Positions 4,393 through 54,797 of a stretch of DNA of 58,146 nt are shown here, one piece after another. Position numbers and translations under genes: made by a program. Each line of letters starts with the position of its first letter. Positions within the stretch are counted from its first letter, which is position 1. Location: contig JARDVH010000140.1 in NCBI GenBank assembly GCA_030324005.1, positions 28,929,513 to 28,987,658 on the forward strand, given 5' to 3'. The notes under the pieces are model-generated. The model was given only the letters and a program-made list of their open reading frames with translations, had not been told where the DNA came from and made no database searches. This DNA is from Negaprion brevirostris. Taxonomy: Eukaryota.

Positions 4393-4703
4393 GTGAAATT
4401 GAACCTTCAGTCAATTGTTGCTATAACGAAATTTTAAGAATAGTTCCGGTCTCTAGATCACTGTGATGCTAAGTTTTGATGGAATTACTTATTAGTACTG
4501 CTCCACCCTTCACAAACATCTCCTCAGCCAGAGCTTTATGTCTGTATCCTGTTTTATTGAACTCGCATCTACCTTTTTCTCATATCAATGTTCACTTTTC
4601 TCCCTTCGCCAGAAAAATCAATTACTTCAAAATTCTCATTCTCCTCGCATATAGAAATTGTTAGATGAAGAAAAATCAAAATCCATGCTGGTAATTGGCG
4701 GAC

Positions 4704-4850
4704 ATGATGTGGATATGCCGGCGTTGGACTGGGGTAAACACAGTAAAAAGTCTGACAACACCAGGTTTAAATCCAGCCGATTTATTTGACAGTGAGTTGA
4801 CTATCAAATAAATCGGTTGGACTTAAACCTGGTGTTGTCAGACTTTTTAC
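4704..4850. mobile_element. Palindromic Penelope-like non-autonomous element, internally deleted (no hammerhead left)
   Basis: Tail atgatgtggatatgccggcgttggactgggg followed by 51-nt inverted arms (4743-4793 / 4800-4850, 48/51 match). Flanked by a TSD-like pair taattggcggaca / taattgggggaca. Confidence 0.75.
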
Positions 4851-4961
4851 GATAATTGGGGGACACAACGTTAATGGAGCTGTCAGTGTTGATCATCCCT
4901 GCGTCTTAGTTCAACACCTCTCAGACTTGACTCAAATCTTTGAGACTTGACTACTGTGGGG

Positions 4962-4963
<2 letters not shown>

Positions 4964-5010
<47 letters not shown>
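4964..5010. repeat. (GT)n microsatellite
   Basis: Perfect GT run of ~23 units. Confidence 0.98.
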
Positions 5011-5012
<2 letters not shown>

Positions 5013-6104
5013 CTTATGTTCCCCATCCCACTCCACCACCATCATCACCCAACACTCTGAAAACTTTCCTAAGCTACTTTGCCTTATTTCATTCCTCCAA
5101 GTCTTCAAAAGTCTCCTCAAAACATATGCTCTGCTTTGCCTGTCTCTCTTAACTTTTCTCCTGCTTCTTCCTCAGCATTTTGTTTTCTCTATCCCGTTCC
5201 CTCCCCTTTACCAAGCACTTTGGAACATTTAGAGTACTATACAAGTGGATGTATTGTTTCTTCTGCAATGTTAGAAATGCTTAACAGCCCACTTTTTCTC
5301 ATTCATCTATTATTCCATATGTCTTTAGGCCTTGCATCTCTACCCGCTAACAGAAGTGCATAAATAATGATTTCTGACAGATTTGTGAAGTAACCTTGTA
5401 CAAAAGTTACAATATGTGACTTTACATATAGTTTTGTTTTGTTTTATTTTACTTTACTGCTATGTACAGTAAAATTTCAAGTCTTAAAATGAAAATCAAC
5501 AAGATGCCATGGAAATACGTCAATAGCTAAACGTTTGAGAGTGTTATTAGCAAAAGTACCTCAAAAATGATGATAATTAGCATGATCTGAAAGTTGTGAT
5601 TGTGAGTGGCATATGTATCGTTACAAAGTCTTAATTTGCTACTAGGGCTGATAATAACAACTAATGCACCTAAATGACACTGTAAGCTTTGCAGCTGTTT
5701 TCTTCCCCAGAGCTGCTGCAGCATTACAGCACTCCAAATGATCTAAACTCAGCTGTGTCACTGTGCACTGTTATGTTTCCCTTCTAATGCTCTCAAGGCA
5801 ACTCGTTATTATTCATTGTGTAAACATGAGATCCACATATTGTCCTTTGCCGTTTCTGATCGGCACTCAGTGCCTTATTTGGACTGCATGTATTGACACC
5901 ACTATTACTCACCTGACTGGAGATGACATCAACTACATTGGCATCTGCATTGCTGTTAAATGGCAGGGAATGATTTCAGACACGCACAGTTTAGATTATG
6001 TAACCACCCCTCCATATCCTGCACTTTGGGAAAAGTAATCAATTTCTATTATGTAAAATACCTACGACATATTTAGGGTAATGCATTATCAGCTTCTCTA
6101 ATTT

Positions 6105-6391
6105 AAAAGTTTAAAGTTTATTTATTAGTGTCACAAGTAGGCTTACATTAACACTGCAAGGAAGTTGCTGTGAAAATCCCCTAGTTGCCACACTCTGGCA
6201 CCTGTTCGGATATACTGAGATAGAATTTAGCATGGCTAATGCACCTAACCAGCATGTCTTTCAGATTTTGGGAGGAAACCCATGCAGACAGGGCAGGGCA
6301 TGCAGACTCCACGCTGACAGTGACCTCAGCCAGGAATCGAACCTGGGTCCTTTGCGTTCTGAGGCAGCAGTGCTAACCACTGTGCCGCCCC
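6105..6391 (-). mobile_element. HE1/V-SINE, tail type B (...cttgtgacactaataaataaac)
   Basis: Reverse-complement head at ~6360-6390 and tail at ~6105-6190. Confidence 0.88.
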
Positions 6392-7669
6392 ACTAAGGCC
6401 GCTCCAGAAAAGTTACCTTATTTCATCTGGATATTAGCATAGTGGATGTAACAAAGTTTCCCCCGAATTAGGGAATACAGCACCCCACTTTGGGAGAATG
6501 AGGATAATCCACGACGGCACATGTTTCCGTCTATTAGAAAGAAATGCATTTTGAAAACTAATGGCATTGGGAACGCTGATGATGACAGATGAGATTAATG
6601 TTCACACAATAACACGTGAATTAGTGATAGCAGAGATTAAACGCTGTCAAAATGCCAAGTGAACCAGTGATAGGAGAGATTAGAGGATGAATGGAAATGA
6701 AGATGGATCAATGGGTGGTTGCTCTGCTCTGCCTGAGCAATGAAGATGAAAATTACCCCTGAAATGATTTTTGCATTAAATTCCTTACCAATATTCAATG
6801 AGTGGGCTGACAAATGACTTGATCTTGAGCCCCTGTTGATACTCTTGTTTAAACAGTAATATTTGCAATGGCATCTGGGCACAGTGACCCACAAACTATT
6901 TTTATTTAAGTGTATTTGTACACTCTGACAGTGTGACAGAGGCATGTAAATGTCCATATAGAGAAGTGGGGGGAGCAGAAAGTTAACTACTACTTTATGA
7001 CACTGTACTTTGTGGCTTACAAATAGGCAGCAGCTCTTGACAAGAAGCCGCAGGAATATACAATTTGTGTCAGTCGTACTGTCAGCAAAGATAAGGCAGC
7101 TACATAATAGATTCCATAGCTAAACAAAGAGTGGATTGGAGAGTTCTGAGGCATCGTTCATTCCATCAATGAATTCATTTTAATTAAGGGAAAAAAGATG
7201 TATTTTCTTTCCACCTTCTGATATGTTTCACTAAGTTAACTTTGATGCGAAGAACGAAGGCTGCAATGTTTGTAAATCTGTCAAATGACTCTTGTATCTG
7301 TCTCTTTCTTCAGCTTCCAACCAGGAGAAGATCTGTAGAAAAGAAAGCTTAAAAGGCAACAAATGCCAAGAGATAAGCATCTCCTGCAGAGACATGAATC
7401 TCTACTGATGCAAACATTGCGAATCTTATTTGGTGCTTTGAAATCTTTTTTGGATTAATCTAATTTGATCTAATCCATGGCATTAAATGAATGTCATTGT
7501 CAAGAAACCTATATAGTGTATAAACATATGCCAGGCATCAGAGCAGCTGGGAAACTGGCAACCAACTCCCTGCTGCACTTGAGATGGCTGCTAGGATCAA
7601 CACAGCAGTTCTTATATATTTTCAGTGGACAAGCACAACCCTTTTGATTATTGTTCCCTTACATGATGT

Positions 7670-8004
7670 GTCATGGAATCCCTACAGTGTAAGGAGGCCA
7701 TTCAGCGCATCAAGTTTGCACCAACTCTCTGACAAGAGTATCTTGCCCTGGTCCTTTTCCCCACCCTATCCCAGTAACCTCCCTCTTTTACCATGGCTAA
7801 TCATCTAATCTACACACCTTGGAATATTAAGGGGAAAATTTAAGTCCACCTAACCTGCACATCTTTGGAGTGTGGGAGGAAGCTCAAGTAGACACAGGGA
7901 GAACGTGCAAACTCCAAGCTCCACACAGGCAGTCTCTCAACACTGGAATTAAACCCGGGTCCCTGGCGCTGTGAAGCAGCAGTGTTAGCCACTGTGCCAC
8001 CGTG
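7670..8004 (-). mobile_element. HE1/V-SINE, tail type A (...gtagggattctatga)
   Basis: Full head, V-domain and tail on the minus strand. Confidence 0.9.
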
Positions 8005-9226
8005 CAAGGTATCTGAATACCTTACACATAGGAATGAACATACATTTCTTTGCAAAGTCAAAATGATGCAGCTACTGGGAATCAGAAATAAAATTAAATC
8101 AGTGCGTCCTGCTTTGTACCGAAAGGTCACCATGCTATAAAGCTCCTTTAATCCTAGTGTCAACTGAGCCATTGGTGTTGTGGCAAGCAGGGCCAAGGCA
8201 TGTACAATATTTGCATCCAAAAAGGAATAGTTGAAGAAAGCATCAATTTCTCTTGCCACCGTTCACACATTCAGAGCTAACTGGAGGACAGGCCACTGGA
8301 GATTTTGTACAGAAAAGTAAACTTGGTTTGATAGATTTTATTCAGTAAAGTTATTAAGGGACAAAGAAGCAAGGCAGGCAAATGAAGATGCACAGGTCTA
8401 ATTGAATAGCGGAGCAGGCTCGAGGGGTTGCATTACCTAGCCTTGTTCCTCTGCTGCTGCTGTTGAAAATTGAGTCAAAGTAAATCGATTCAGTGGCACA
8501 CTAATGATCACATTTTTCACCTATGATTTCCACCAGATTTGCTGTCACAACAAAAGATTTTAATGCATTCATTTTAAAAAGGCAACTCGTGCAGACACCT
8601 GCCACTGTATTGTGAAAGCCTTGTTCTGCGTGCTAGCACTTTGCCACCTGCCCTACTATCCACCTACATGGTTTGGTGTCAAATTTTGTTTGCAAATGCT
8701 GCTGTGAAACATTTGCGGTGTTTTTTTTGCCACTTTAAAAGCACCATGTGAATAGAAGATGTTGTTGTACCTGAGAATACATTTCCTCATCATTGCTATT
8801 CTGCTAAAAATTGGAATACGTTTGTACTGAATTGTGGCCTGCAAGTTTTAAATGAATTTAGGCCTGTATTTAACAGCACAGATTGGGATTTGGTACATGT
8901 TCATCTAAATGGTTGCTCACACCAGTCAGAGAGCACACTGCCACAACAGAAGCTGCGTACTCTCCCCTTGCCAGCATTACCTCTTTAAGTTGCACTGTGT
9001 TTCCATTCACACAGCAAAGCCCCGCTTTTTGAGTGAACTAAGCTAGGGAGGCATTTTTTTGAATGAATTTTTTGTAGTTGGTTTCTTCAAAGTTACCTGT
9101 GTGGAGATTGGGATTATTGAATGTTTGCCTTGGTTGTTTCAGTGAAAGCTCCTCTGGTATTCAGTGTTCTATCTCAGATTTGGTGATAAGCTGGTAGACT
9201 GTTGGCAGGTTTGTGAGCGTGACCAA

Positions 9227-9271
9227 GTGAGAGGGCTTTCACTGACCATGACTCAGTGAAAGCCCTCTCAC
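9227..9271. repeat. Perfect 19-bp inverted repeat with a 7-nt loop
   Basis: gtgagagggctttcactga-ccatgac-tcagtgaaagccctctcac. Confidence 0.95.
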
Positions 9272-9525
9272 CTATGAGGCAGAAGGTTCTGGGTTTAAGC
9301 CTTATTGCAGAGGAGGGGAATGGACCCTAGGCTGATGTTTTACTACAGTGCTCAGGGAATGTTGCACTGCTGGAGGGGCTGTCTTTCAAATGAGGTATTA
9401 ACTGAGGCCCTTTGGGTTCTCAAAAAGACCCTGTGTCACCATATGAAGAAGAACAGAGAAACTTTCCAAGTGGCCTGGCCAATATTTATGCTTAATGCAG
9501 AAAAGCTGGTCATTGTTTCATTGTG

Positions 9526-10087
9526 GAAAGCAAAATACTGGGGGTGCTGGAATCTGAGACAAAAACAGAAAACGCTGGAAAATCTCAGCAGGTCTGACAG
9601 CATCTGGTAAGTGACCGTAGAGCCAACATTTTGAGAGAGAATAGAATTAGGGACGGCACAGTAGCACATTGATTAGCACTGCTGCCTCACAGCACCAGGG
9701 ACCCAGATTCAATTCCAGCTTTGGGTGACTGCCTGTTTGGAGTTTGCACATTTGCCCCATGTCTCCCTGGGTTTCCTCTGCGTGCTCTGTTTCCTCCCAC
9801 TCTCCAAAGATGTGCAGGTTAAGTTGATTGACCCACGGTAAATTGCCCCTTAGTGTAAGGGGAATTAGCAGGGTAAACACATGGGGAGAGGGCCTGAGTG
9901 AGATTGTTGGCGATGTAGGTTCGATGGGCTAATTGGCTTCCTTCTGCACTGTAGGAATTCTATCCTATGATTCTATAAGATCCACTTTTTTGAGAGGCTG
10001 TCCAGACTCTCAACATTGGCTCTATTCTCTCTCCACAGACGCTGTCAGACCTACTGAGTTTTTCCAGTACTTTCTGTTTTTGTCTCA
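9526..10087. mobile_element. Second palindromic Penelope-like family, interrupted by an HE1-type SINE
   Basis: Left arm tgagacaaaaacagaaaacgctggaaaatctcagcaggtctgacagcatctg is the near reverse complement of the right arm cagacgctgtcagacctactgagtttttccagtactttctgtttttgtctca. Confidence 0.65.
9649..9977 (+). mobile_element. HE1/V-SINE, tail type A, nested in the Penelope-like element
   Basis: Full head, V-domain and tail. Confidence 0.9.
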
Positions 10088-11099
10088 TCATTTTGTTGCT
10101 GTTTCTCGAGTCTTGCTGTGTGTAAACTGGTTGTCATGAATTCCTGTCTGTCTTTAATGACTTCAACATCACAATTATGAAGGATAATTTGAGATTGTGA
10201 CAAGTGAAAGCTGTTCCCTTGTCCATCTAATGACTCCTGACTGTAATTAATGTGTAACTGTTGTTTGAAGGGAAGGATTGGGATTAGCTGTGATGCTTCT
10301 GTGGTTGAGTGATCATGTCAATGTGCCAGCTCACAAATGAAGGATAAACAAGGCATTTTAGAGCAGGGAATGGCCAAGAAGTATCTGGAAAGCGATGGAG
10401 TACAGTAGGGAGAGGGAAAAGCAACTATACAAAACTGCAAAGGAACATATCTCACTGAAAGTGGAATCAATTATATTCAATTGGACAGTTATATGTGTAC
10501 AATGGTTGAAGTAATGATTCAGCAACAATAGGGTGATTTGAAATAACCTTACAAAATAATTTTCCTGCACCATTACTGGGCATCATTGGTAATCCTGATA
10601 TACATCAATTGTCTGATTTAAAAAAAAAGGGAAAAAATTGAACATCCAGATTGTCTGAAAAAAATTAGCAATAGAATTGTTGAAAATATTCGATGGATCC
10701 CCTTAACAGAAAAAAAAAGTTTCATATTTCAAGTGGAGGTCCTTTGTTAGACCTGATTATTACTGGTCAACAAAACCACTGATTATTACTTGGCAGCGAG
10801 CTACTTTAATGTGTACACATCAAATTGTTACCATAATAAAAGATGGATTTAAAACCCTCAGGCCATGAATCAGAACATTTTGCCTTTCATTAGTTTTATT
10901 ATTTGGACTAAGGTTCCTTGTGTTTACTTTGGCATAGGAGGTCCTTCTTAGAAAATTGAGTCCCATCACTTGTTGAAGGCTTACTGAGCAAACATGCTGC
11001 CGAGTATATTTGCTAGGCAAGTTCAAGGATAAAGCTGGAATGGTAAGCACGCTATGATTGACCACGATGGTCTTGAGTTATGGAGGCATAAACACCCAG

Positions 11100-11330
11100 T
11101 TCATGTATTGCTTAGATTGCAATAGATTGTGTGATCTAAGTATCTGGTGAGGACACACTTAGGCCTGGCTGGTTATCTCTGCAATTTAATTCCCTGCCAG
11201 CATTTGCAGTCTGAAGATCACACATGAAGAGCAGCCATTTTGGCAAGGTACCAAAGTGGCTGACATCGCTGGAACTGCGTCCTGGCAAAACCTAGCGCCT
11301 CTGGGAAAAGAGAGAGAGGAAGTTGGAGAA
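11100..11330 (+). mobile_element. Ancient SINE relic resembling AmnSINE2
   Basis: tcacacatgaagagcagccattttggcaaggtacc...ggaactgcgtcctggca matches the remembered AmnSINE2 3' body. Weaker copies at ~10270-10420 and ~31740-32060. Confidence 0.4.
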
Positions 11331-12417
11331 ATGCTCTGTCGTTTGTGACTTTGAGATGTTTCTCAGAATAGCCATTATTCCCTCCAGCTTATGATGTAAT
11401 CACCATCTGCACTGTCATTTAAATAGAAGACTACTTGGCAGTTAGTTTATGCCTCCTAGTTAAAATGGCAGCGCTGAATCTAATTCAGCATGCAAACACT
11501 TGCAGAGTGTATGACATGATGTATGAAATGCTTTCTTTGGCGTTCACTATTGATGCTCGAGCCTCATTCATCAGTCAGTCCAAATGCTCTGTTTAAAAGG
11601 GATGTCTTCACCACCAAACCGCACAACTACTGCCTGCTCAGCATTTCAAGGTACCTCGTGAGATTAGTATTCTCACGGCCATCATGTTGTGCTTTGCTGA
11701 CACTTGCATTGACTGCTGTGAGGCTGTCCTTATCAGTGCCTTATTTAAGGCTGGGAAGAATGACGCGAAGCAGTTTTGAACCTCAGCAGTGCAGAGCGGA
11801 GGCAATATGTTCTTGTCTTCCTCGTCAGGGAGATTCTTTTTCTTTTCAGATGAAGATGCGTGGGGAGGTGACAGACTGGAACGAGTTAGATTGGGTTTTA
11901 CTCAACTGTAAAAAGTGCACTTTCTATCGATGCTTCGGTGCAAATGATGACAGACAGAGGCAATGCCTTTCTAAGAAAGCGAAGGAGAGTAGCTGAGGGG
12001 AAGATTATTTCATAGGAATCTGCTCTTGATATTTCACAGACAGTTTTTTCCCCAAAAGAAATTAGAATTTTTCCCATAATTCAAATGAAGCTTTTTTGAA
12101 TTAAAACGGTGCAAAAGGCGTATTTCATTTTTAGCACAGTTGGCATTTGAATGACTAACAATTGGCGCATTTGTGGCGGCTGACCTTATCTTTTTGCATG
12201 ATGGCACCAAGGACAATAAGTAGAAGAGGAAGATGAGTGGTGAAAAATCCAGACGTAAGCAGCCAATTGCTGGGGACTCTCTGGCTATGATGTGGGTAGG
12301 TGAGTGTGGAATCAGCAGAGGGCAGTTCCACTGAGCTGGAGATGAGGCATTGGAAGAGATTGGCCAGGCTGACTTTGTCAAAGGCTTAAGACAGGTGAAG
12401 GAGGAGAATGGCCAGGA

Positions 12418-12840
12418 TTTGATTTGATTCATTATTGTCACATCTATTGGGATACAGTGAAAATGTATTGTTTCTTGCGCGCTATACAGACAAAACGTAC
12501 TGTTCATAGAGTACATTGGGGAGAGGGAAAGGATAGGGTGCAGAATATACCGTCAGAGCTAGGGTGCAGGGAAGGATCAGTTTAATATATGGTAGATCGA
12601 TTCAAGAGTCTGATGGCAGCAGGGAAGAAGCTGTCCTTGAGACTGTTGGTATTTAATCTCGGACTTTTTCCCGACGGAAGAAGGTGGAAGAGAGTATGTC
12701 CGGGGTGTATGGGGTCTTTGATTATGCTAGCTGCTTTTCCAAGGCAGCAGGAAGTGTAGAGGGAGCCAAGAGATGGGAAGCTGGTTTGCATGATGGACTG
12801 GACTACCCTTTGTAGTTTCTGGCAGTCTTGGATACCTTAC
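12418..12840 (-). mobile_element. Rex1/Babar(L2-group) LINE 3' end including the RT C-terminus
   Basis: ORF 12582-12791 contains AASIIKDPIHPGHTLFHLLPSGK...LKDSFFPAAIRLLN, a typical C-terminal motif of this LINE group, followed by a (tcaaa)n tail. Confidence 0.85.
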
Positions 12841-12907
12841 CAGGGTCAAAATCAGAGGCTGTTTTTCAGTGCAGAGGTGAAAACCTGAACTTGGTGAGAA
12901 ACAGGGG

Positions 12908-13012
12908 TGACAAAAAAAAGTACTGGACAAACTCAGCGAGTTTGGCAGCATCTGTGGCGAAAGAAACGGTTAATGTTGTGAGTCTGTATGACTCTTCTCC
13001 TGAGCTAAAGAG
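12908..13012 (-). mobile_element. Decayed arm of the second Penelope-like family
   Basis: caaaaaaaagtactggacaaactcagcgagtttggcagcatctgtgg...gagtctgtatgactc. The stem II hairpin remains but the core boxes are mutated. A shorter piece occurs at ~53975-54015. Confidence 0.55.
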
Positions 13013-13844
13013 ACGGGTACACGGGTTACTGTAATCTTTTAAAAGATTCCCCGTCAGCAAACCTCAAATTAACGTTATAGCCTATCAACAATTGTGAGCA
13101 AAATTGTGCATTTTGTGCCAGCTGGCTAGTCTAAATTTTTGCTTTGATCTTTACCATAAACTCTCAAAATATATTATCCATTGCAAAATATAATTCTCAA
13201 CAACAGCTCCCAGTGAGCAGTGTGATGTTGCATGATGCAAACTTCTTGTGCACAAATAGATAGTTACTGGACTTTCTATCCGTTCAGGTTACTTTGAATT
13301 TAATCATAAGAAGCTTCCTTTCCTGAACACATTTAGTGAATGCACCACAGCCGCAATGTGATTAGTCTGCAAGACTGGTGGAGAATACTGTTGGGATTGA
13401 GAAGGACGCGTGTATTTTCATGTCCAAACGCAATAGGTTGGCATTAAGCAGCTTATGACTTTTAATAAACACCTTAGACCTTCAGCAATAGTTTCGAAAC
13501 TACCACTTTTGAAACTCTTGGACTGGGTTAGCAGATAATTAATGTGCAGGAGAGTAGTGGGAAATGTGATACTTCTTCCTCATCTTTGGTTCTGATATTA
13601 ATATTTAGCACTCCTTGGTCGAGTGGATGGAAGCTGCATCTCCCTCCATCTCCACAAGATGCCTTAATGCCAACAACAACAAGAATTTTCAGTCAGTGAT
13701 TTGCATTTCTCAGAGTAGCACTCTGATGCACTTGCTGGGCAAGGTTGCCAGCTTGTTGCTTGTTTTTGTGATGTGTGCACCCAGTTTTATTGAAGACACT
13801 CTTTAATTCTGGAAGTCATTGAACACCAGATAGAGGAGATCACT

Positions 13845-14047
13845 ATGATGTGGAGATGCCGGCGTTGGACTGGGGTAGGCACAGTAAGAAGTCTCACAAT
13901 GCCAGGTTAAAGTCCAACAGGTTTATTTGGTAGCATAAGCTTTCGAGCGCTACTCCTTCATCAGGTGAAGGAGCAGCGCTCCCTCCGAAAGCTTGTGTTA
14001 CCAAATAAACCTGCTGGACTTTAACCTGATGTTATGAGACTTTTTAC
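13845..14047. mobile_element. Palindromic Penelope-like element with fused hammerhead-bearing arms
   Basis: Same tail and arms as the 4704 copy; the inverted arms meet at ccttcatcaggtgaagg. Confidence 0.8.
13934..13967 (-). ncRNA. Minimal type-I hammerhead ribozyme motif (Penelope-associated)
   Basis: Minus strand CAC-CUGAUGA-AG-GAG(UAGCG)CUC-GAAA-GCUU-AUG: both core boxes, short stem II and palindromic AGCU stem III. Stem I is weakened. Confidence 0.65.
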
Positions 14048-14078
14048 AGATAGGGGGAGGGAGGGATGGTAACACAGG

Positions 14079-14168
14079 TGTAATGCCTCATTTAAGCCCA
14101 TGAGGTGGGCCTCTTGGTGTATGAACCCCCTGATTGAGGTAATGATTGCTTGCTAATCAGGGTGTTTC

Positions 14169-14216
<48 letters not shown>

Positions 14217-14348
14217 GAGGGTGTCAGGGCTACTGACACCCTGGTTTCTAACTTTGTACCCAAAGTCAGAGGTCTTCAGAGTGGAATTGAGTATGTAAAT
14301 AAAGGGAATCTGGTAAAGGGACATTGGCCTTTGAGGAATTATTTAACA
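14079..14348 (+). mobile_element. Possible solo LTR containing a (TG)n tract
   Basis: Starts TGTAA, ends TAACA, with AATAAA ~50 nt from the end. No convincing TSD. Confidence 0.35.
14172..14212. repeat. (TG)n microsatellite
   Basis: Perfect TG run of ~20 units. Confidence 0.98.
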
Positions 14349-27467: not shown

Positions 27468-27812
27468 GGGCGGCACAGTAGCACACTGGTTAGCACTGCT
27501 GTTTCACAGCTCCAGGGACCCGGGTTCGATCCCCGACTTGGCTCACTGTCTATGTGGAGTTTGCACATTCTCCCTGTGCCTATGTGGGTTTCCTCCGGGT
27601 GCTTCGCTTTCCTCCCACAGTCTGAAGATGTGCAGGTTAGGTTGATTAGCCATGATAAAATTGCCCTTAGTGCCCTGAGGTGCATAGGTTAGAGGGATTA
27701 GTGGGTAAATATGTAGGAATATGGGAGTAGGGCCTGGGTGGGATTGTGGTCGGTGCAGACTCGATGGGTCGAATGGCCTGTTTCTGTACCGTAGGGATTC
27801 TGTGATTCTATG
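27468..27812 (+). mobile_element. HE1/V-SINE, full length and young-looking, tail type A
   Basis: gggcggcacagtagcacactggttagc, B-box ggttcgatcccc, V-domain and tail gtagggattctgtgattcta. Confidence 0.93.
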
Positions 27813-29724: not shown

Positions 29725-30468
29725 AGAAGTGATGACCTCTAGCAACTCTGACCTCTGAGTCTGACAGTCATGTTATCAGACCCCACTTCAGAAACTGTAG
29801 CATTTAATCTAGACAAGCAGTACTGTGCAGAGAGGTGGCGGCACCTTGGAGGTGCGATCTGTGGGATGCCTGTTAAATTGAGACCCCATCTTCCTTTTCG
29901 AGTGTACGTAAAGGTCTCATGATACTCCCCGAAAAAGTCCAGGGGCGTACTCCTGGTGTCCCGGAAAACATTTTCTTTTAGCCAACACCATGAAAACAGA
30001 TGAACTGATCATTTATCTAACAGTGGGTGGCACGGTGGCACAGTGCTTAGCATTGCTGCCTCACAGTGCCAGGGATCCGTGTTCGATTCCCAGCTTGGGT
30101 CAATATCTGTGTGGAGTCTGCACAGTCTCCCAGTGTCTGTGTGGGTTTCCTCCTGGTGCTCTGGTTTCCTCCCACAGTCCGAAAGATGTGCTGGTTTAGG
30201 CGCATTGGCCATGCTAAATTCTCCCTCAGTGTACCCAAACAGGCGCTAGAGTGTGGCAACTAGGGGATTTCCACAGTAACTTCATTGCGGTGTTAACGTA
30301 AGCCTACTTGTGACATTAATAAACTTTAGATTCGGGTTCCTGCTGGTTTTATTTGCTTGTATTACAGCTGTGACTACACTTCAAAAGCACTCTGGCTGTG
30401 AAGCATCTTTTTTGGGAAGTGCTGAGGATGAGGATGTGTAGTGCTTAGGCACTACGTAAATGCAAGCT
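29725..30468 (+). mobile_element. DeuSINE/SacSINE1-like SINE split by an HE1 insertion
   Basis: Body before 30024; tail tattacagctgtgactacacttcaaaag...gtaaatgcaag after 30328. Confidence 0.6.
30024..30328 (+). mobile_element. HE1/V-SINE, full length, tail type B
   Basis: Head ggtggcacggtggcacagtgcttagc; tail gcctacttgtgacattaataaacttt. Confidence 0.92.
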
Positions 30469-36390: not shown

Positions 36391-36723
36391 AATTCAAGTA
36401 ATAACATTAGAATGTAAATGAGTAAGGATAATTTTAGTGAACAGCCATTTGTTAATGGAGCACAGCAAAATCCAGTGTAGTCGGGCCAATTTTACAATCA
36501 GTCCGAGCATTCTCATATATTGCAATGTGGTGTTTATTCCCTAGTGTGACAGAGCTATATTGACAATGTTACTGTCAACAGTACTTGCACGATGGTCCAA
36601 TTGAATGTCAAACCTCTCAGGAATTAAGATCTGGCATATGTTTACATCATTGGATAACAATTGTTTCCTTATTAACAAATTGTGCTTCCATTGATGGGAA
36701 TCAACTGTTTTCATTTCTGGGAG

Positions 36724-37042
36724 AAAGTCTGACAACACCAGGTTTTAGTCCAACCGATTTATTTGATAATAAACTCACAAGCTTTCGAGGTTTCCCTTTT
36801 CGTCAGGTGAATGGAGAGTTCTGGCCTCAGACAGAGCATATAAAGCACAGACAGTTTAGAGATTACTGATNNNNNNNNNNNNNNNNNNNNNNNNNNNNNN
36901 NNNNNNNNNNNNNNNNNNNNNNNNNNNNNNNNNNNNNNNNNNNNNNNNNNNNNNNNNNNNNNNNNNNNNNTGGACTAAAACCTGGTGTTGTCAGACTTTT
37001 TACTGTGTTTACCCCAGTCCAACGCCGGCATACCCACATCAT
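36724..37042. mobile_element. Penelope-like element with inverted arms; centre lies in an assembly gap
   Basis: Arms aaagtctgacaacaccagg... / ...cctggtgttgtcagacttt, with the tail in the opposite orientation to the 4704 copy. Perfect 13-bp direct repeat tcatttctgggag at 36711-36723 and 37039-37051. Confidence 0.8.
36773..36812 (-). ncRNA. Minimal type-I hammerhead ribozyme motif, best-preserved copy
   Basis: Minus strand AUUCAC-CUGACGA-AA-AGG(GAAA)CCU-C-GAAA-GCUU-GUGAGU: 6-bp stem I, GNRA-capped stem II, palindromic AGCU stem III. Confidence 0.75.
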
Positions 37043-37627
37043 TTCTGGGAGGACAGGGAAAAGAGGATGGTCCATGGCTCTGAATGTTTCTGGGATGCTG
37101 TGCTGTTCATGATTGAAAGTTCAGAGAGAAAAAAATAATTTCCATGGATGCTGTGGCAAAAGATCTTGTGTGTTCTTGAAAATGATAAAGGAAACACAGT
37201 TCTTTGAAGGTTAATCTCCAAGCAATTGGCTCCTTTCCCAGCTAAGATAAATACAATACAGGCCAATTATGGGCACCCTGCTAGTGACAATGTTTCATTT
37301 AAAAGGAACACTTAATCAGACACTGAGTAATTCCCCATGTATTCCTCGATTGCTGAATATGAACAATTACATCTAGAAAACATTTTGTTTACCTCCATGA
37401 TGTTGGAAGAAGATTGCTGTTGTTTGTTTAATGCAATGGATATTTCGTGTTGTGATTCGTGCCAGGACAATGTTGCCCAGTTTACTTAAGTTTGGTTTTT
37501 TTATGTTTGCTACGTTTTAGTTGAGAAAGTCTGTATTGAAAGCAGGGTGAGGCATCAGAATGATGATATGGGTGAGACCTGCTCTTGTTATTGCCATAGC
37601 TGTGATTGGACAACTTTAGGAAACATA

Positions 37628-39945: not shown

Positions 39946-39969
39946 TGCTGACTACATGGGATGTCGGTT

Positions 39970-41532: not shown

Positions 41533-41565
41533 GAAGAAAAAGAAAGATTTGCATCTTCATAAGAC

Positions 41566-42946: not shown

Positions 42947-43075
42947 ATTGCCCCTTTGTGGCAGGGAGGTTAGCAGGGTAAATTTGTGGGGTTGTGGGAG
43001 TAGGGCCTGGGTGGGATTGTTGTCAGGGCAGGCTTGATGTACTGAATGGCCTCCTTCGACACTGTAGGATTCTGA
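42947..43075 (+). mobile_element. HE1 3' fragment after a gap
   Basis: attgcccctt...cactgtaggattct. Confidence 0.8.
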
Positions 43076-43589: not shown

Positions 43590-43692
43590 GAAAACATCCA
43601 GACTCCACACAGACAGTCACCCAAGGCCAGAATCAAACCAGGGTCCCTGGAGCTGTGAGGCAGCAGTGCTCACCACTGTGCCACCATGCCGC
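43590..43692 (-). mobile_element. HE1 5' fragment
   Basis: gactccacacagacagtcacccaag...cactgtgccaccatgccg. Confidence 0.85.
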
Positions 43693-45034: not shown

Positions 45035-45677
45035 AGCCATTAGGAAAGCTAATAGAACGTTATCATTTATTGTGAGGAGAGTGCATCACAAAAGGAGGGA
45101 GGTTATACTTCAGTTGCAAAGGGCAGTAGTGAGGCCACATCTGGAGTATTGTGTGAGGATTGATATCATTTAAGGAAAGATGTAAATACATTAGAAACAG
45201 TTCAGAGGAGTTTGCTATACTAATATCCAGAAAGGGAGGATTCTCTTATCAGGAGAGGTTGGACAGGATAGGCTTGTACATACTGGAATTTAGAAGAGTA
45301 AGATGTGGCTCAGTTGGAACTTTTAAAATCCTGAGGGTGGATTTGGAGAAGATGCCTCCTCTCGTCAGGGCATCTAGAACTAGGAGTCATTGGTTAAAAA
45401 TAAGGGGTAACTCATTAAAGACAAATGAGAAGAAATGTTTTCTCTCAGAGTTGAGAGTTTCTGGGACACTCTTCCTCAATAACCGTGGAAGTAGAGTTGT
45501 TCAATTTTTTAAGGTCAGGCTAGATAGATTCCAGATTTTAAAAATCTGTATATTATTGGGGGCAGAAGGGAATGTGGGGTTGAGGTTACAATCAGTTCAG
45601 TCCATGATTTTATTGAATGGTGGAGCAGGCTGAAAGGGTGAAGTGGCCTACTCTTCATCCTAATATGTATATCTGTA
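45035..45677 (+). mobile_element. CR1 LINE 3' part (decayed)
   Basis: ORF 45160-45633 includes SYQERLDRIGLYILEFRRVR...TFKILR...SRTRSHWLKIRG, CR1 ORF2 C-terminal motifs, followed by the tail. Confidence 0.88.
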
Positions 45678-45699
45678 NNNNNNNNNNAAAAACAAATCA

Positions 45700-46480
45700 T
45701 TTTTGCACCTTTATATAACTTCCTTCCAAATTTGACCCTCTACATCCTTCCCACTAATTGTGGCCAACAGACTACACTGAGCAAAAACAGTTCACCTTTT
45801 TTGTTCCATAGCTTCAGCCAAATGGTTTCTGTTCTTGATTCTCTCTGGGAAATTCTCCTGCTCCAACACTGTCTTGCTCCCTTTTATCAATTTCACCATC
45901 CTTCCCTTTTTTCTTCTTCCCCTGAACACTTTGTATCCAGGAATATATAGCACCATATTTTGAGCCAGACCTCTGTTATAGCCACAACATTGTATTTCCA
46001 CAAGTAATGTGCCACTCTAACTCACCAATCTTATTTACCACACTCCATGCAGTGTGGCCCTGATTTGAAGTCTATTCCTTTTCTTCCTGACTCTGACCCC
46101 AATTATTAACTTATTATTCCCAATTCTACTGCTATCCATCTGTCACAGTATTCTGTGCACTTTGGTATTCCTTTCTGATATCTTCTGGTTCCGCCACCCT
46201 TTCCAAGGTAGTTTAACCCTTCCCAATAGGACTAGCAAAACATCCCACAAGGATCTTAGTCATGGAACTATATAAGTATAACCTGTCCGGCCTTTACAGA
46301 TTCTATCTCCTAAACCAATCCCAATATATTTGTTTCCAAATGTGACTCAAAACCCACAGATTTATATTCCCAAAGTCTCCTCTGAACTTCCGCTCACTGT
46401 CTCCCACTGGTTTAGGGCCCTATGCCTCTGCCTCTTTATACCCATTACTCTCATGCGCACAGTCCGATCACTCATTGCAA
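45700..46480 (-). mobile_element. Decayed CR1 internal fragment (endonuclease region)
   Basis: The minus-strand peptide LYIPGYKVFRGRRKKG resembles the CR1 APE motif (IPGYxxFRxDR). Confidence 0.55.
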
Positions 46481-47434
46481 AAGGAAGACCATCCTGATGA
46501 GCAGTCCAGACATGACCTTTTAGTAGTTTGAACCTGTGTTCCCTGATTACAGACATTGCACTGAATGTTGCAAATATCTAGATTTTGGAAATTTTAATTG
46601 GAGATCAGTAGCGATTCTTGCTGGGTTTTTGCCGTATGCAAGGGTCAGAAGATCCTGGGAGTGGGGAGACGCCAGTGTTGAACTTACTAAGCATATTTAA
46701 ATGTAACGCTAAATACTCTGATCTGCAGCCTCCTGCACTTTCTGGGTGAGATCCAGTTTGCTCCGGTAGCAAGGGACCAAGCATATTGTAAACCATTTGG
46801 TGCCGGGCCAGAACCTGTTTTTCGGCCCGCACGCAATCTTCCTGCATGAGCACGATCTGCTTCAGCACAGCGAGGGCGGAAAATCACAGCCCCAGTCTTT
46901 GTAATCCAATGCGACCTGTACTCGTTCTCTTTATCTGATCCAGGAGTGCGTTTGGTGGACTGGAAGAGAAGTCAGCTATTGCAAAACATATTGCAAGACC
47001 CACAAAAAATGTTGATGATGGCTTGATAACTGCATGCTGGCAATCAACACTCGATGTAATTATAAGTTCTTTACCAAAACCCTCAGATGGGTTGAAATAT
47101 GTTATGTGACCTTTCTTCTACTAGAAAAGAGTTCAGTCATTTGCTGCTACAAAGTTAACACGCTCAATAAATGGAGCTTAGCTGATTGTAAATTAACTCC
47201 CTCGTAAATAAATAGTTTTCCTGAGACATTACAATAATAAGAAATATGTGAAGAAGAATATGAAATACTTGTTACAAGAAAAATAAGTTACTCTTCTAAG
47301 TAAAAGCAAATTTGTGAAAAAAAACTCAAGAAATTATTCGGAGCAGAATAACTGATATTTGGAACATTCAGTGCAGTGTCTGTAATCAGGGAACGCAGGT
47401 TCAAACTACTAAAAGGTAATGTCTGGACTGCTTA

Positions 47435-48290
47435 TCAGGCCCTTGAGCCTGCTCCACATATCACAATGGTCATAGTTGAACTTTGACTGCAAGTCCATTT
47501 TGTCAGCCTATCCCCATTTCCCACAATTCCTTTTGTGTCCAAAAAATCTCTTACTCCCAGAGTTGACTATATTCCAGAATTTTCCTGTCCTGCTTGTCAC
47601 AGGAACTGTACCAGGTGGAACATGGACCATGTAAAGAGTGGCTGGAAAATCCCGCCCCATGACTGACCACCCACCACTCTTGGGGTAGCGAGTTCCAAAG
47701 ATTCACAGCTCATATCAGTTTGAAATGGCCAGATCCTCATCCTGAGTCTTTGATCCCTCAATTCTAGACTTTGCAGCCTCCAAAAGCAGCTTTTTGGTAT
47801 ATATCCTCTCAAGCTCTCAAGGAATCTTTTGTGGTTCAATGAGATCCTGAAACTGCAAAGAACTCATTCTACGCAATTTTTCATCGTAGGACAGCCCTCT
47901 CACCCTAGGAATCTAGCCAACTTTCATTACACTCCCTCCTAAGGCAAGTAAATGCATATTTCCCAAGGTAAGGAGACTAAAACTGTACTGCACCCAGAAC
48001 ACAAGGTATCACTTAACAAAATCTGATATCCTCACATAATTCCTGCAAGACTTCCTTATTCTTATAACCCATCCTTCTTATGACAATGACAAATGTATCA
48101 TTTGCCTTCCTAACATGTACCTACATGTTAACTTTCAGTGCTTTGTGTACAAGGACAAGTCCGTCTGCATACCAACACTTACTGTCTCTCACATTTTAAA
48201 ATTATTCTGTTTTCCATCCTTCTGGCTATAGTGGATAATTTCTCACTTCCCCACATTATGTTACATCTGCCAACTTCTTTCCTAATTAAT
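47435..48290 (-). mobile_element. Decayed CR1 3' part with a small MITE-like insert near 47580-47660
   Basis: Inverted CR1 tail (ggcccttgagcctgctcc) followed by inverted ORF2-like sequence (gactaaaactgtact...tttgccttcctaa). Confidence 0.6.
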
Positions 48291-48365
48291 CTTGGCTGTT
48301 CTGGAGTTTTTCTTTTAGAAGTGTGTGTACGTTTTGTTTTTGTTGTAAACTGACTCATCTGGAAA

Positions 48366-50856
48366 TCAAGAATCAGTGAGAGTGTACTGTTTTAAGCCTA
48401 TGTCTGTTTCATTGCAAGTTCCTTCTCTTTCTTAAATTAAATCAGATCCATTCCTTACGCATTCTGTGATGTTCACTTTTAGGCATGAATGCACAAAAGG
48501 AGCATGTGTCCTCCCATCGGGGTGTTCTCATCAAGAGATTTTAACTCTAACTGTGCAACATTATTCTTTCTGTCAGTATTATTCTTGTAACTTCCTTAAT
48601 TCTGAGAAATGAGTTATCAATAAAGAAGATATAGAAAAAAATTCAGCAAACACATTGATAAGAGGGAATTTCTGTCAGGAAGAACACAACCTACTGGAAG
48701 TGAAATCTGCAATATGCAAAAGAAATAAATTGAAGCAAGAGGTTTCTGGACTTCAAACTGAGCGACCAGATTGAATAAACATTGTGATAGTGTAGATGCT
48801 GATCCAAAGTGCCCAGGAAGCCACTTCAGTCCCTCTGTTCAGGAATTTGATATCCTTACTTTTTAAAGAATTGCTCACCAGAAACGCTGGCAACCTGAAT
48901 TTTTCTGTTTGATTCTGTATGTTAATCCAGATGGGTAAGTGAGTGGCTTCTTGGCACACCTTCTGATTAAGTTTTTGTCTTCTGTTGGCTGAAAAAAACC
49001 CCTTGACAAGTAGTACGACCAGGGAATATAATTCACATCGCCTTTGTTATGTAAGATTAAAGGAAAACAAGATCTTTTCCCTTGGGATGCTTTATCTTTA
49101 AAGAAGTGTTGTCCCTTGACATGGTGTGGCGTAATGTATTATCATTAGACTAGTAATCCAGAGACCCGTGGCAAGATTGGGGGAGACCTGAGTGGGTCAA
49201 CCCACTAAGGTCAACCTATAACTCAGACCATGCTGAGAGGCTTCGCACCTCTCTCACACTCCTCAACCAAATCATATACCAGCTCTACAGCAAATGCCAC
49301 AACCTGGAAACTAAGATTGGGAGACCCAGGTTTGAATCCCACCACGATTCAAATGTGATGGGACATTTGATTTATTTATAAAATCTGGAATTAAAATTCT
49401 AACGATCACCATGAAACCATGTGGTTGATTCACAAACTCTCACTGAAATGGAGGGCAGTCTGTGAGATTAGAAGTAGTTGACTTTTTTTTTGTTCTTTTC
49501 CTTCAGTCTATTTGTCTTGGGTTTTGTAGTCAGCAGTGAAGGAATAGTGCCCACTATTCATTATGCTTAAATTTCCCAGAGACTTGTGGGCTTTTGAGCA
49601 GCTACTTTTGGTCATTCGAGAGCCTTTCAGCATAAGGCCCTTAAAAGTGGATTTGATTCCTGTCTGAACAGAGTGAGCAAAGGTGTTTCTCTCCAAGTAC
49701 TTGTTTGAAGAATTCTCACTGAAGCATTGGAGTCTAATCTAGAATTCCATGTCAAACAGTGTCATCCAAGTAAAATTATATACAGAAAGTGAAATAAGGA
49801 GAGGGAAAGTAAGATAGATTTAAGGTCAAGAAATGAAAGAGACTGAATAAGTTTATATAAAAAAAATTAATTGTTAATTTTCTAAAAAAAAGTATGATGA
49901 TTATGTACTGGAAGAATGACTTGCCATACTTGTAAAATTAAATTTTATGGACCAGACAGTAAATTATGATGTTCAGCCCAAAACAAATTGATTTAGCCTT
50001 GATCATTAGCCCTAATTTTTGTGTTATGTCTAGTGGATACCTTGTGGTAAGTACGGCAACTTTGTATCCTTTAAATGAGGAATTTATTGGCCAGGTACCA
50101 GTGTTTGTGTAAGAGCAGGGCAACTCAGCAAACCACATACTGATTTCCATGATGAATTACACGTGTGGAACTCAGAGGTTGCTGACTGGCTTATGTCATA
50201 ATAATGGTGAACACTGATGGCCTCCGCATTATTCTTGTTATAAAATCTGGGTCCAGGACTTTTGCTGAAGCATGGCTTCATATTTCTTGGCTTGTTGCCC
50301 CAACCATGGAACTGTTCTTTTCTGTGAGTCCTGTCAATAAATTGTGACAAGCTATTTTGAATGAAGGGGAATCACAGCCTAAGCAAGTTCTGTCTTCAGT
50401 CACCTGACACATGTGCATGTCCCAGTATTGATTCACCAGAATGTAATCGGGAGCAGGAATCCTGAGTGACCCCACCCCCGCCGGCGTCGTTTGGCAGCAC
50501 AGTTTCCAGTTTCGGTTCCCTTCTGCTGCCCTGGCTGCATTGAGCCCATTCAGCAGAACTTGGCAGTAGTAAGATCACTTTCCAGGTTGTTTAATATTTT
50601 CTGTCTCAGGAATAAGGTCACATTCCAGCTGTTTGACTCAGGCCCCTGTTTTATCCTGATTATGTTGCACAGTTAGAGTCAACGTCTCTTGATGAGAACA
50701 CCCTGATGGGGACACACATGTTCCTTTTGTGCATTCATGCCTAAAAGAGAACTGCATAGGATGTGTAAGGAATGGATCTGATTTAATTTAAGAAAAAGAA
50801 GGAACATGCATTGAAACTAACGTAGCTTTTAACAGCACGCTGTCATTGATTCTTGA
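48366..50856. repeat. Long inverted repeat: arms 48366-48561 and 50662-50856, spacer ~2.1 kb
   Basis: Manual alignment gives roughly 80-85% identity, with exact blocks such as tttcttaaattaaatcagatccattccttac and cttttaggcatgaatgcacaaaagga. Confidence 0.95.
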
Positions 50857-53456
50857 GTGAAAAATTGACGTGAGCTTTATGCAATGTAGCACATTTGTTC
50901 CTGCCCAATGTGTAAAATCTATCAGATGGCGCAGTAGCTATTAGGACCTTGGTGGTTGCTGGGATCACAGATGGAGTGTCGGACAAACAAGAAGCACTAA
51001 TTTCCCAACAGCTGAATGTAAATTTCAGCAACTTGCATTCCGAGCAACGGGCAGTGTTCTACAATAACCTCGCTGACACTTTATCTGGATGAGATTTTTT
51101 GCTGGCAGTGAAACAGTCTGCCAAGGTTTAAGCTTGTCCTCTTTTCATTCAAAACATCAGTGCAGAACACTGAGCTGCAGCAACCCTCAGATTGCTGATA
51201 CTCACATGGTTTGGGTTAGCCCCAAGCAACTCTTAGAACATAGAACAGTACAGCACAGTACAGGCCCTTCAGCCCTCGATGTTGTGCTGAGCTATGTCCG
51301 AACCCAAGATNNNNNNNNNNNNNNNNNNNNNNNNNNNNNNNNNNNNNNNNNNNNNNNNNNNNNNNNNNNNNNNNNNNNNNNNNNNNNNNNNNNNNNNNNN
51401 NNNNNNNNNNNNNNNNNNNNNNNNNNNNNNNNNNNNNNNNNNNNNNNNNNNNNNNNNNNNNNNNNNNNNNNNNNNNNNNNNNNNNNNNNNNNNNNNNNNN
51501 NNNNNNNNNNNNNNNNNNNNNNNNNNNNNNNNNNNNNNNNNNNNNNNNNNNNNNNNNNNNNNNNNNNNNNNNNNNNNNNNNNNNNNNNNNNNNNNNNNNN
51601 NNNNNNNNNNNNNNNNNNNNNNNNNNNNNNNNNNNNNNNNNNNNNNNNNNNNNNNNNNNNNNNNNNNNNNNNNNNNNNNNNNNNNNNNNNNNNNNNNNNN
51701 NNNNNNNNNNNNNNNNNNNNNNNNNNNNNNNNNNNNNNNNNNNNNNNNNNNNNNNNNNNNNNNNNNNNNNNNNNNNNNNNNNNNNNNNNNNNNNNNNNNN
51801 NNNNNNNNNNNNNNNNNNNNNNNNNNNNNNNNNNNNNNNNNNNNNNNNNNNNNNNNNNNNNNNNNNNNNNNNNNNNNNNNNNNNNNNNNNNNNNNNNNNN
51901 NNNNNNNNNNNNNNNNNNNNNNNNNNNNNNNNNNNNNNNNNNNNNNNNNNNNNNNNNNNNNNNNNNNNNNNNNNNNNNNNNNNNNNNNNNNNNNNNNNNN
52001 NNNNNNNAAACATTCCCGCTTTGATTGGACGCAGAGGGAGCGCACGGCACTCGCAATCAATGTTGTGTGCAATCAACATACACCTCAATTCACTTGCCCT
52101 TGCTTTACGTGCGTATCCCTTCGGCCACGTCAGTAGGCAAAAAACTAAGTGGATGGAAACTAGTGGAATGTGGCAAGCTGCACATGGGCAACAGTCAACC
52201 AAATGAGTGGGCTGTGAGATGGAGGGTGGGTTTATGGGATGCCCTGCAGGTGTTTAACGCCCTTACCCTGTCAGGCCCACGAATTGGACTTGTTAAAGAG
52301 ATTAGTGAGCCCGCTGTTGGATCAGGCGAGAAAAATGCAGGCCTCACAGCCAGCTTTTCTCCCCATGTTAAATAACGCTGTGTGTATTTTAAGAGGGGAA
52401 GTGAGTTTCACACCATCAGCTGGAGGCGCAGGGCCGGAAGAGGTGTGTCCTTTTTAAAGCACCCCAATCTCCAACTTAAATGAAAGACCTCCCTCACCAA
52501 GGCACTGCCCGGCTTTGTCCCTCATCACCCGGGCACTATACTCACCCCCGCACCCTCAGCGTGTTTATCACAACTCGTTTTTCGGTTTGAAGGCCAGTAG
52601 TGATTCGCGCTGCTGACTGGGAGGGAGGATAAAGTGTGGGTGGACGGAACTGCATCAAGGCCAGTAAATACATGTTAATTTATTAAAATGTATGGAAATT
52701 AGTCCTTGCCCTTTCTGGGTCTGAATCTGGTCATGTCACTGATAGGCGGCAGAGAAGATCTCTGTGGCGAAAATCCCATTTTGGCCCTCTCAAGACAGGA
52801 TTTGGCAGATGCTATGGGATTTGCACCCGTGGCTAATGTGGCTGCAAAATCCTGACCAGTTTTCAGTTTTATAGTGATTCTGAAGTACTTTCAGTATTGA
52901 CTATGAGTACTACCAGAAATTGTAGCTTGTAAATTGACCTGGTCTGTAAGACAAGTCCATTTTCTTGGTACCACAAATCATTCTTTTGCCTATAAGACGA
53001 CTCTTCCTTCTGCTGAAAAATGCTAGGCTTTGTTTGTTTATTTCTTTGTTTTTCACCTCAAATGAGTGTTTTACTCACCTTGTAAGTCGGTGCCTCTGAT
53101 CAGGCAGGGGATATAGAGCACGTTGCCAAGAAAATGTGCTTGATTTGAAGACACACCCACACACAGCAGACTGAGCATGGTGAATAACAAACGAAATGCA
53201 TTATCTGGCAAAAGGACTGAAGTACAAATCTGGCTTCAACCTAAAAGTTACAGCGTTNNNNNNNNNNNNNNNNNNNNNNNNNNNNNNNNNNNNNNNNNNN
53301 NNNNNNNNNNNNNNNNNNNNNNNNNNNNNNNNNNNNNNNNNNNNNNNNNNNNNNNCTAAGGCCAAATGCATCAGCAGAATGGGGATCAACTCCCGGTCTG
53401 ATATTGACAAGCAATTATTGGAACGGATTGTCAAAAATCATCATAATGGTTACCTC

Positions 53457-53549
53457 CTCACCCGGAAATACAAAACATGTGTACGCACTCACTCGAATAT
53501 ACAGAACATGTATACCCACTCACCCGGACATACAAAACATGTATACATA
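53457..53549. repeat. Minisatellite, 3 x 31 bp
   Basis: ctcacccggaaatacaaaacatgtgtacgca / ctcactcgaatatacagaacatgtataccca / ctcacccggacatacaaaacatgtatacata. Confidence 0.92.
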
Positions 53550-53807
53550 CTTAAGTGCAAATTAAACCTCATGACGAGTGAATATTTCAAGACAACAGCT
53601 AGTTAATGTAGCTACTTTATGGAATCAAAATGTCTAGTGTTGCAGTGTAAGACCAAAGTTGCTCAGAGATGGCCAAAAGACCACAAAGCCACCAATTTCC
53701 AACAAAACATCAGCAGACAGTGGCAAGAACACCACTCCCCATCATGTTACATTGGCAATATGGGTGAAATGCTGTTGAATTTTGATTTGCCTAGCAGCCA
53801 AATTGAG

Positions 53808-53970
53808 TGATTTGATTTATTGTTGTCAGATGTATTAACATACAGTGAGAAGTAGTATTTTTTGCTCACTATACAGACAAAGCATGCTGTTCATAGAGAA
53901 GGAAAAGACAGGGTGCAGTATGTAGTGTTACAGTCATAGGTAGGGTGCAGAGAAAGGTCAACCTCATACA
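53808..53970 (-). mobile_element. Rex/Babar-L2-type LINE 3' tail
   Basis: Same tail as 3628 and 12418. Confidence 0.75.
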
Positions 53971-54691
53971 AGGTACAAAAACAGAAAATGCTGGAAAATC
54001 TCAGCAGGTCTGACATATAAGGCAAAGCCATTGTTCCTGTAGCTGATAAGGACATATTCTTCAAATCTTTCCTTTGTGACTCCAATTTGAGGTGCGCCCA
54101 GCCCACCCCACTCCCCTCAGCCACTTGAACAATATTGAAATAAAGAATGGCCACAGTTGCTGGGCTACCATTGTGGAGGGGAACCTCTCCATAGGTTACC
54201 TGCAGCCACATTAATAGCCATCCAGATGGGAAGGGCTTCCTAACCTGTCTGGCGTGTTAGCCACCCTTGTTTACTGTGGGGAGGCTGCCTCCAGGCAGCT
54301 GGTCTGTTCCTGACTTTGACATCTAGTAGTTCTCTGACAGTTGATCTTAATTGGGCATAAGTTTACCAAGGTTATGTTACCCATCATTCATGGGTCAGTC
54401 ATCCTTCTGCATTAATCCTATCAGTGGGAAAATGGCATGGAGGTTGGTGGATGCTGGCAAACCAGGAGGCAGTGTAAATTTATATGCCTGCCCAATTCTA
54501 TTATTGTATCCATATCTGGGCAAAAAAATCAGCCCTTTGTCTCACATCCCATCTTCCCTTTGCCAGCTTGGCCAGATGGGCTCTCCAGACTGTGTTTCCA
54601 TGCTCTATAATCCTTGGTTGCAGAGGAAATAGCAATCTAGTTTGAGGCTTGGTTATAGCTACTGCCAGTTAAACTGCTGTTGTCACCCAGA

Positions 54692-54797
54692 AGGAAGTCT
54701 CACAACACCAGGTTAAAATCCAACAGGTTTATTTGATAGTTAACACCACTAGCTTTCGGAATGCTGTGGTTTCGTCAGGTGAGTGGAGAGTTCTGAT
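54692..54797 (-). mobile_element. Single arm of the same Penelope-like family
   Basis: gaagtctcacaacaccaggttaaaatccaacaggtttatttg... matches the arms at 13.9 kb and 36.7 kb. Confidence 0.75.
54746..54782 (-). ncRNA. Hammerhead motif with decayed stem II
   Basis: Minus strand UCAC-CUGACGA-AACCACAGCAUUCC-GAAA-GCUA-GUGG. Core boxes and stem I are intact; stem II cannot pair well. Confidence 0.5.

Follow-up and report, generated by a model that had tools for sequence, protein, structure and literature searches.

The window analysed here, a stretch of 58,146 nt from Negaprion brevirostris (contig JARDVH010000140.1), contains four related short insertions built from one common arm. Judged from their sequence, these four copies are pieces of the pseudo-long terminal repeat (pLTR) of an abundant Penelope-like element (PLE) of the Neptune type. 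Rather than stages of a single decaying unit, they are probably separate, very short insertions of this element, in which the mirror structure is likely to have been built during insertion by both cut strands of the target, each priming a cDNA, with the two cDNAs then joined head-to-head.

The four copies

Copy 1 (4704..4850) is a head-to-head insertion composed of a tail (approximately 4704-4742), a 51-bp arm (4743-4793), a 6-nt loop and a second 51-bp arm (4800-4850), with 48 of 51 positions paired in the hairpin. It carries no hammerhead, both arms ending 3' of the hammerhead position. Its target site duplication (TSD) lies on the plus strand at 4692..4704, where it overlaps the tail end by about 2 nt, and at 4853..4865, with 12 of 13 positions matching. 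In copy 2 (13845..14047), an arm with tail extends to TCAC just 5' of the hammerhead core, followed by a 3-nt TCA/TGA overlap and a tail-less arm. The two arms are fused inside the hammerhead and CUGA is present only on the minus-strand arm; the second, tail-less arm lacks CUGA, begins with TGAAGG and has a 4-nt duplication that is common only to one other locus, L008. A weaker direct repeat (9/10) is found about 8 nt off the left end.

Copy 3 (36724..37042) is a head-to-head insertion of a young subfamily, with a tail-less long arm (36724-36870), an assembly gap of 100 N in the centre (36871..36970) and an arm with tail (36971-37042). Because of this gap, its length and centre are not readable and it is not usable as a "long form". 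The TSD on the plus strand is perfect (13/13; 36711..36723 and 37039..37051) and its right copy overlaps the tail end by 4 nt. Copy 4 (54692..54797, minus strand) is a single 5'-truncated, tail-less arm that has a hammerhead motif with a broken stem II and adjoins a (CAC)n/(CA)n tract; no TSD was found. Copies 1 and 3 differ from copies 2 and 4 in their subfamily letters, and the four therefore do not represent one lineage. An initial annotation of this DNA had described four related copies with a common arm, a one-sided tail in three of them, TSD-like flanks of copies 1 and 3 and a 51-bp hairpin in copy 1, all of which hold; the tail measures 38-40 nt.

Parent element and abundance

Walking upstream from the arm in the host genome leads into a 3' untranslated region, then to the end of a GIY-YIG domain, a CX4CxxC linker, and the thumb and core of a reverse transcriptase (RT). 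The layout of the element is a TATA-like box, hammerhead, AATAAA, arm, tail, ATG, RT, CX4CxxC linker and GIY-YIG. A near-full but frameshifted open reading frame (ORF) with RT motifs, recognised by eye, and GIY-YIG is present in L115; its GIY-YIG part matches PF01541 with an E value of 4.5e-4, just below the curated cut-off, and is the only one of six pieces matched in Pfam. A thumb-linker piece was placed next to PF26215 clusters in Atlas (0.93-0.94). An RT with a C-terminal GIY-YIG recurs as frameshifted pieces in L115, L111 and others, and no intact parent copy was seen among the loci examined. The tail is directly followed by the ATG in 30 ORF-start loci, most of which are preceded by an arm or a full pLTR, as a partial tandem. 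The linker reads CHSNLCKTC in L111, L116, L120 and others. A CX2-5CxxC linker before GIY-YIG defines the Neptune/Nematis clade (PMC8557442, cited, as are other sources marked "in part", from a portion of its text). By this linker, which does not separate Neptune from Nematis, the parent would belong with that clade. The Penelope-like origin proposed in the initial annotation is borne out by degenerate RT/GIY-YIG copies in the genome, and a parent with the same arm and tail exists, though its copies are degenerate.

An exact 44-nt pattern of the arm has 5,033 matches in the genome, a count that leaves out the young subfamily, compared to 0 for a reversed control, and thus greatly exceeds chance. 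A random sample covers the window and 136 stretches of 10 kb, taken at even spacing from large scaffolds, for a total of 1.42 Mb (1.16 Mb without N). It holds 71 clusters, which scales to about 134,000 insertions in the 2.69-Gb genome. The 71 clusters comprise 34 head-to-head pairs, 22 resolved singles, 12 that end in gaps and 3 that were left out (edge, internal fragment, complex). A second set of 30 loci, taken by the exact arm pattern (2 of 32 pattern clusters were left out), adds 20 pairs and 7 singles. Searching with copy 2 gave another 29 loci; being biased, this set is included in the TSD counts but not in those of tails, hazards or junction repeats. Arm ends were placed by hand with an accuracy of about 2-3 nt, since an automatic junction caller made false pairs and missed others, and 21 arms ending in assembly gaps were treated as censored.

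Outer ends and arm geometry

There are two preferred outer ends, the arm end and the tail end, while the centres are varied and show microhomology or inserted bases. Exactly one arm carries the tail in 42 of the 47 palindromes with both ends resolved, where half would be expected (P = 1e-8). In 21/40 the tail-less arm exceeds the tail arm in length, and in 15/40 its 5' end lies more than 10 nt beyond that of the tail arm, so that neither arm contains the other. TSDs of variable length (7-17 bp) were recognised in 50 of 75 pairs, as opposed to 15 of 222 shuffled flank pairs. They overlap the element by at least 1 nt at 22/32 tail ends and at 15/32 tail-less ends; these counts are rough, and the presence of overlap at both kinds of outer end is a correspondingly rough sign of target priming at both. 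The PAc protein is known to cut and extend both strands, to use two internal starts that bound the tail and to use uncleaved RNA, and is predicted to be a dimer (PMC11167929). The one-tail rule, the non-nested arms and the TSD overlap all fit this behaviour.

The 5'-end hotspot

The arms stop preferentially at one site. Fifty of the 131 resolved arms end within the 10 nt immediately 5' of CUGA, where the hazard is about 15-fold. The end rate per nt is 0.080 in this bin, drops to 0.018 in the adjacent 3' bin, amounts to 0.022 in a small bin further 5' and is about 0.005 elsewhere. The modal end is the A of ACTCAC, and a TATA-like box is found 29-31 nt before it in 50/52 long arms; in copy 3 this box, a putative promoter element, lies at 36837..36842 on the minus strand, 30 nt upstream of the hotspot, and the predicted transcription start is 36812.

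Directly before ACTCAC, the base is a G in 42 of the 71 genome matches that have a non-template base there, while one base further out a G is found in 24 among 100 matches listed of 107 (Fisher P = 6e-6 versus 42/71). Twenty of the 42 G cases were fetched, and by eye all of them end at ACTCAC, with unlike sequences upstream; the lone case flagged by a script, L323, was traced to the opposite arm. For the T/A cases, 7 of the 20 fetched (of 29) run on with a point change. In L1, an extra G is a mark of capped full-length ends (PMC11702581, in part). We infer that the hotspot corresponds to a capped transcription start. A spliced-intron end was also considered as the cause of the hotspot and ruled out, as the G cases all differ in what lies upstream.

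Both cut target strands probably each prime a short cDNA of the capped 5' leader. Reverse transcription would begin at internal sites, with one strand using the arm end and the other the tail end, as has been shown in vitro for an anole element, and the cDNA would run about 95-135 nt to the cap or stop early, after which host end-joining would link the two cDNA ends head-to-head. Longer arms might derive from the 3' pLTR of a read-through RNA or from a template jump, and the stubs would be dead ends that carry the hammerhead uncleaved. The chances seem about even that most copies are such "strong-stop" products, with two internal starts near the AUG, one per cut strand, the leader copied to the cap, an extra G and a head-to-head join.

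Junctions at the centres

The initial annotation had interpreted the four copies as a deletion series from a long form, and more specifically as trans-mobilised units collapsing into a miniature inverted-repeat transposable element (MITE); unique breakpoints in the short copies had been named beforehand as the outcome that would speak against it. The series is not supported; the supposed long form, copy 3, spans a 100-N gap, copy 4 is a single arm and the four are not one lineage. As to the breakpoints, not a single pair of junction coordinates is repeated among 40 unselected one-tail palindromes with resolved centres (four copy pairs lie within 1 nt of each other), so that uniqueness is largely what is found, copy 2 and L008 being the exception.

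Fusion of two arms inside the hammerhead, as in copy 2, occurs at 312 places. Spacers of 10, 11 and 14 nt account for 31 among the 50 listed of these, the 7-nt class of copy 2 for 3 among the same 50, and a search with the spacer fixed at 8 nt gave 2 matches and was uninformative. By eye, each arm offers two (T)CA sites, the recurrent junctions correspond to the four ways of combining them, and the classes track microhomologies of 2-3 nt on different backgrounds. One and the same class is found on the GCTACC as well as the GATTCC subfamily background, and either arm may bear the tail (L004 versus L012, L002 versus L020), as recurrent joining at microhomologies predicts.

Copy 2 and L008 (C140:28767461-28767661) behave differently. 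These siblings share junction class, tail side and the private 4-nt duplication, and they look as if one was copied or converted from the other. The combination of junction type and duplication exists at only two places in the genome, 176 kb apart on one scaffold and with different flanks. This is one copying or gene-conversion event and not a family; local gene conversion and rare re-copying are the candidate routes. The earlier idea that short palindromic units are re-mobilised in trans as MITE-like subfamilies could draw on this pair, which sits at different target sites, and on the prevalence of the three spacer lengths. Nevertheless, it is very unlikely to be correct: the pair is explained by gene conversion as well, the recurrent class cuts across backgrounds and tail sides, unselected junctions do not repeat, and the stubs have no TATA-like box and no ORF start, which the PAc protein needs on its template (PMC11167929). 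Many copies with one internal structure by descent, as in a MITE, are not observed apart from this single two-copy case, and neither are a fixed-length TSD and symmetric termini. A collapsing-MITE series is therefore not supported, nor is it needed to explain the copies.

A few loci have unusual structures. The centres of L292, L276, L297 and L171 contain inserts of 12-40 nt that are seemingly copied from nearby element sequence, which we take to resemble polymerase-theta repair. In L168 (L168:415-787), an arm extends from the hotspot past the tail and into the beginning of the ORF, with a second copy from hotspot to arm behind it in tandem; this may reflect a template jump or the use of a third start site.

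Weighing the origin of the mirror structure

Several observations do not sit well with priming from both strands and a stop at the cap. At 15/32 tail-less ends there is no TSD overlap, the TSD being 1-13 nt away or mismatched (14 negative, 3 flush). Outside the hotspot, the two arms end within 12 nt of each other in 11/29 cases, compared to 2.6 expected under independent truncation, and copy 1 belongs to this near-symmetric class, so that it may have another origin. By eye, the opposite arm could be the source of the G in about 7 of the 20 G cases fetched; T-rich microhomology and C-to-T changes also skew the control position. The Penelope promoter of D. virilis is internal and TATA-less (PMC2377424, in part), so that the TATA reading is not general. 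Young long copies sit in assembly gaps (the 21 censored arms), which skews the sample to short, older copies. The resemblance of copy 2 and L008 has to be added to this list.

The excess of near-symmetric arms would be expected if the cDNA snapped back on itself and was copied to a hairpin, which after trimming of its tail would integrate in the form of an inverted repeat. Self-priming has been proposed for palindromic PLE junctions (PMC3846280, in part), snap-back has been seen with R2 proteins (PMC11371274, in part), and many junctions here have locally templated inserts. However, a cDNA anchored in the target cannot supply the missing tail, yet the tail-less arm is frequently the longer one; in L300 the tail arm, which starts at position 531, barely overlaps the other arm. 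Furthermore, the hairpin would have to exist as a free intermediate and be trimmed in an additional step. Such a fold-back origin thus appears unlikely, though it is the more credible of the two alternatives that address the symmetry.

The other one holds that long head-to-head insertions later lose their centres through palindrome instability, resulting in a separate deletion series for each copy. It accounts for both the near-symmetric arms and the microhomology at the centres, and young copies often have gapped and seemingly longer centres, although these gaps may be an assembly failure. Single-arm copies show the same hotspot (13/29 end at 431-438), and deletion does not make an extra G at a fixed site. 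Loss of centres is accordingly rather improbable as the general origin. Separate insertions with priming from both target strands thus remain the reading that we prefer.

Hammerhead motifs

The family has a minimal type-I hammerhead in its pLTR, as the initial annotation had it, with the CUGANGA/GAAA core, stem II, a palindromic stem III and a UH site, and its window copies are degenerate. Across the fetched loci, 78 motifs have an intact core, and the two main forms of stem II differ by paired changes. In the window, the minus strand has cores of the type CUGAYGA..GAAAGCUH at 13964, 36806 and 54778. The three cores claimed are thus confirmed, but stem II is damaged in every one of them relative to the commonest forms of the family. 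The motif of copy 2 (13930..13968, minus strand) has a stem II that is one C shorter. In copy 3 (36773..36812, minus strand), stem II reads AAAGGG where the family has AGAGGG; G10.1 is changed to A and the conserved G10.1-C11.1 pair is lost.

The suggested check with covariance models came out negative: an Rfam scan of the window gave no hammerhead match down to E = 10 and only weak matches to miRNA hairpins. None of the three motifs in the window adopts the hammerhead fold in single-strand folding, which is expected of minimal motifs and weighs neither way. Hammerhead cleavage as a cause of truncation was ruled out, there being no excess of arm ends at the cleavage site; the bin that contains it has an end rate of 0.0047 per nt and no pile-up.

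Other features of the window

The only three (CA/GT)8+ tracts in the window (4964-5009, 14172-14211 and 54834-54867) each lie at most about 125 bp from one of the copies, an association noticed post hoc. In the random sample, none of 67 insertions is within 150 bp of a (CA)8 (background 0.3%), and microsatellite targeting is ruled out there. A near-perfect hairpin unrelated to the copies, with arms of about 30 bp and a short loop, is located at 55645-55726; it scores far under the thresholds of miRNA models and is possibly a small MITE. Two inverted repeat pairs are likewise unrelated to the PLE arm: 48391-48564 with 50659-50832 (174 nt, 86%) and 46493-46578 with 47354-47439 (86 nt, 94%). Dense repeat families, presumably of the tRNA-like short interspersed element type, occur in both orientations at many sites, for example at 9656-9888, 27473-27705, 30030-30262 and 56406-56638. 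The window contains 17 N gaps.

Implications

Although the inverted-pLTR structure itself is known, how PLEs build it is an open question (PMC8557442, in part; PMC11167929). The end statistics, namely the one-tail rule, the non-nested arms, the hotspot with its extra G and the absence of ends at the ribozyme cut, make second-strand formation by PLEs testable with the existing in vitro system. If the strong-stop reading were true, one mechanism would account for why pLTRs are inverted, why only one side has a tail and why solo hammerheads are so numerous in such genomes, and the transcription start of a PLE would have been mapped from DNA alone. Genome annotation may confuse stubs of this kind with MITEs or miRNA hairpins; a weak match of copy 1 to mir-3015 in Rfam is a case in point.

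Comparison with known systems

An inverted pLTR, a one-sided tail and a TSD are a described hallmark of endonuclease-positive (EN+) PLEs (PMC8557442, PMC3846280 and PMC8969392, all in part). The insertions studied here are similar to these, for instance to Pen2a_Av (PMC3846280, in part; scheme in PMC8557442 and PMC8969392), in having a head-to-head, 5'-truncated inverted copy, an optional tail of 30-40 nt at one end and a variable TSD, as well as a hammerhead and a TATA plus initiator-like motif in the pLTR and partial tandems before full ORFs. They differ in being mostly 100-270 nt long and in that the tail ends at the ATG and not inside the ORF; clustering of 5' ends with an extra G was not found in the parts of the published descriptions consulted. 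Like Neptune/Nematis (PMC8557442, in part), the element has cysteines within the core of its C-terminal GIY-YIG as well as the CX4CxxC linker, while microsatellite targeting is not seen in the random sample (0/67 within 150 bp of (CA)8). No strong-stop or twin-priming model for PLEs was found in the titles and abstract openings of the papers that literature searches listed; supplements, Repbase/Dfam or subscription papers may show one.

The hammerheads resemble the minimal ones of metazoan PLEs (PMC4209133, in part) in their core, the bulged base before stem II and the palindromic stem III, except that the three motifs of the window are mutated; the same study has already reported minimal hammerheads in opposite orientation, 100-700 bp from each other, as well as solo motifs across the genome. 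Non-LTR retrozymes (bioRxiv 10.64898/2026.07.22.740005, in part) are equally non-coding, hammerhead-bearing and PLE-derived. Those, however, form head-to-tail tandem arrays, whereas the copies described here are dispersed singles or head-to-head pairs; head-to-tail units that each carry a hammerhead are not the rule, short tandems being present in few of the 71 clusters (L168, L287).

In twin priming of L1 (PMC11702581, in part), too, the second target strand primes a second cDNA, the TSD is kept and the join uses microhomology. There, a different internal part is inverted, while here both cDNAs would cover the same segment, which leads to a palindrome. The closest parallel for the biochemistry is the Poseidon element PAc of the green anole (PMC11167929), with its two internal starts bounding the tail, its cutting and extension of both strands and no need for hammerhead cleavage. 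PAc belongs to another clade, its starts lie 111-118 nt inside an ORF that begins within the hammerhead, and in the element described here the putative starts are found 5' of the ATG.

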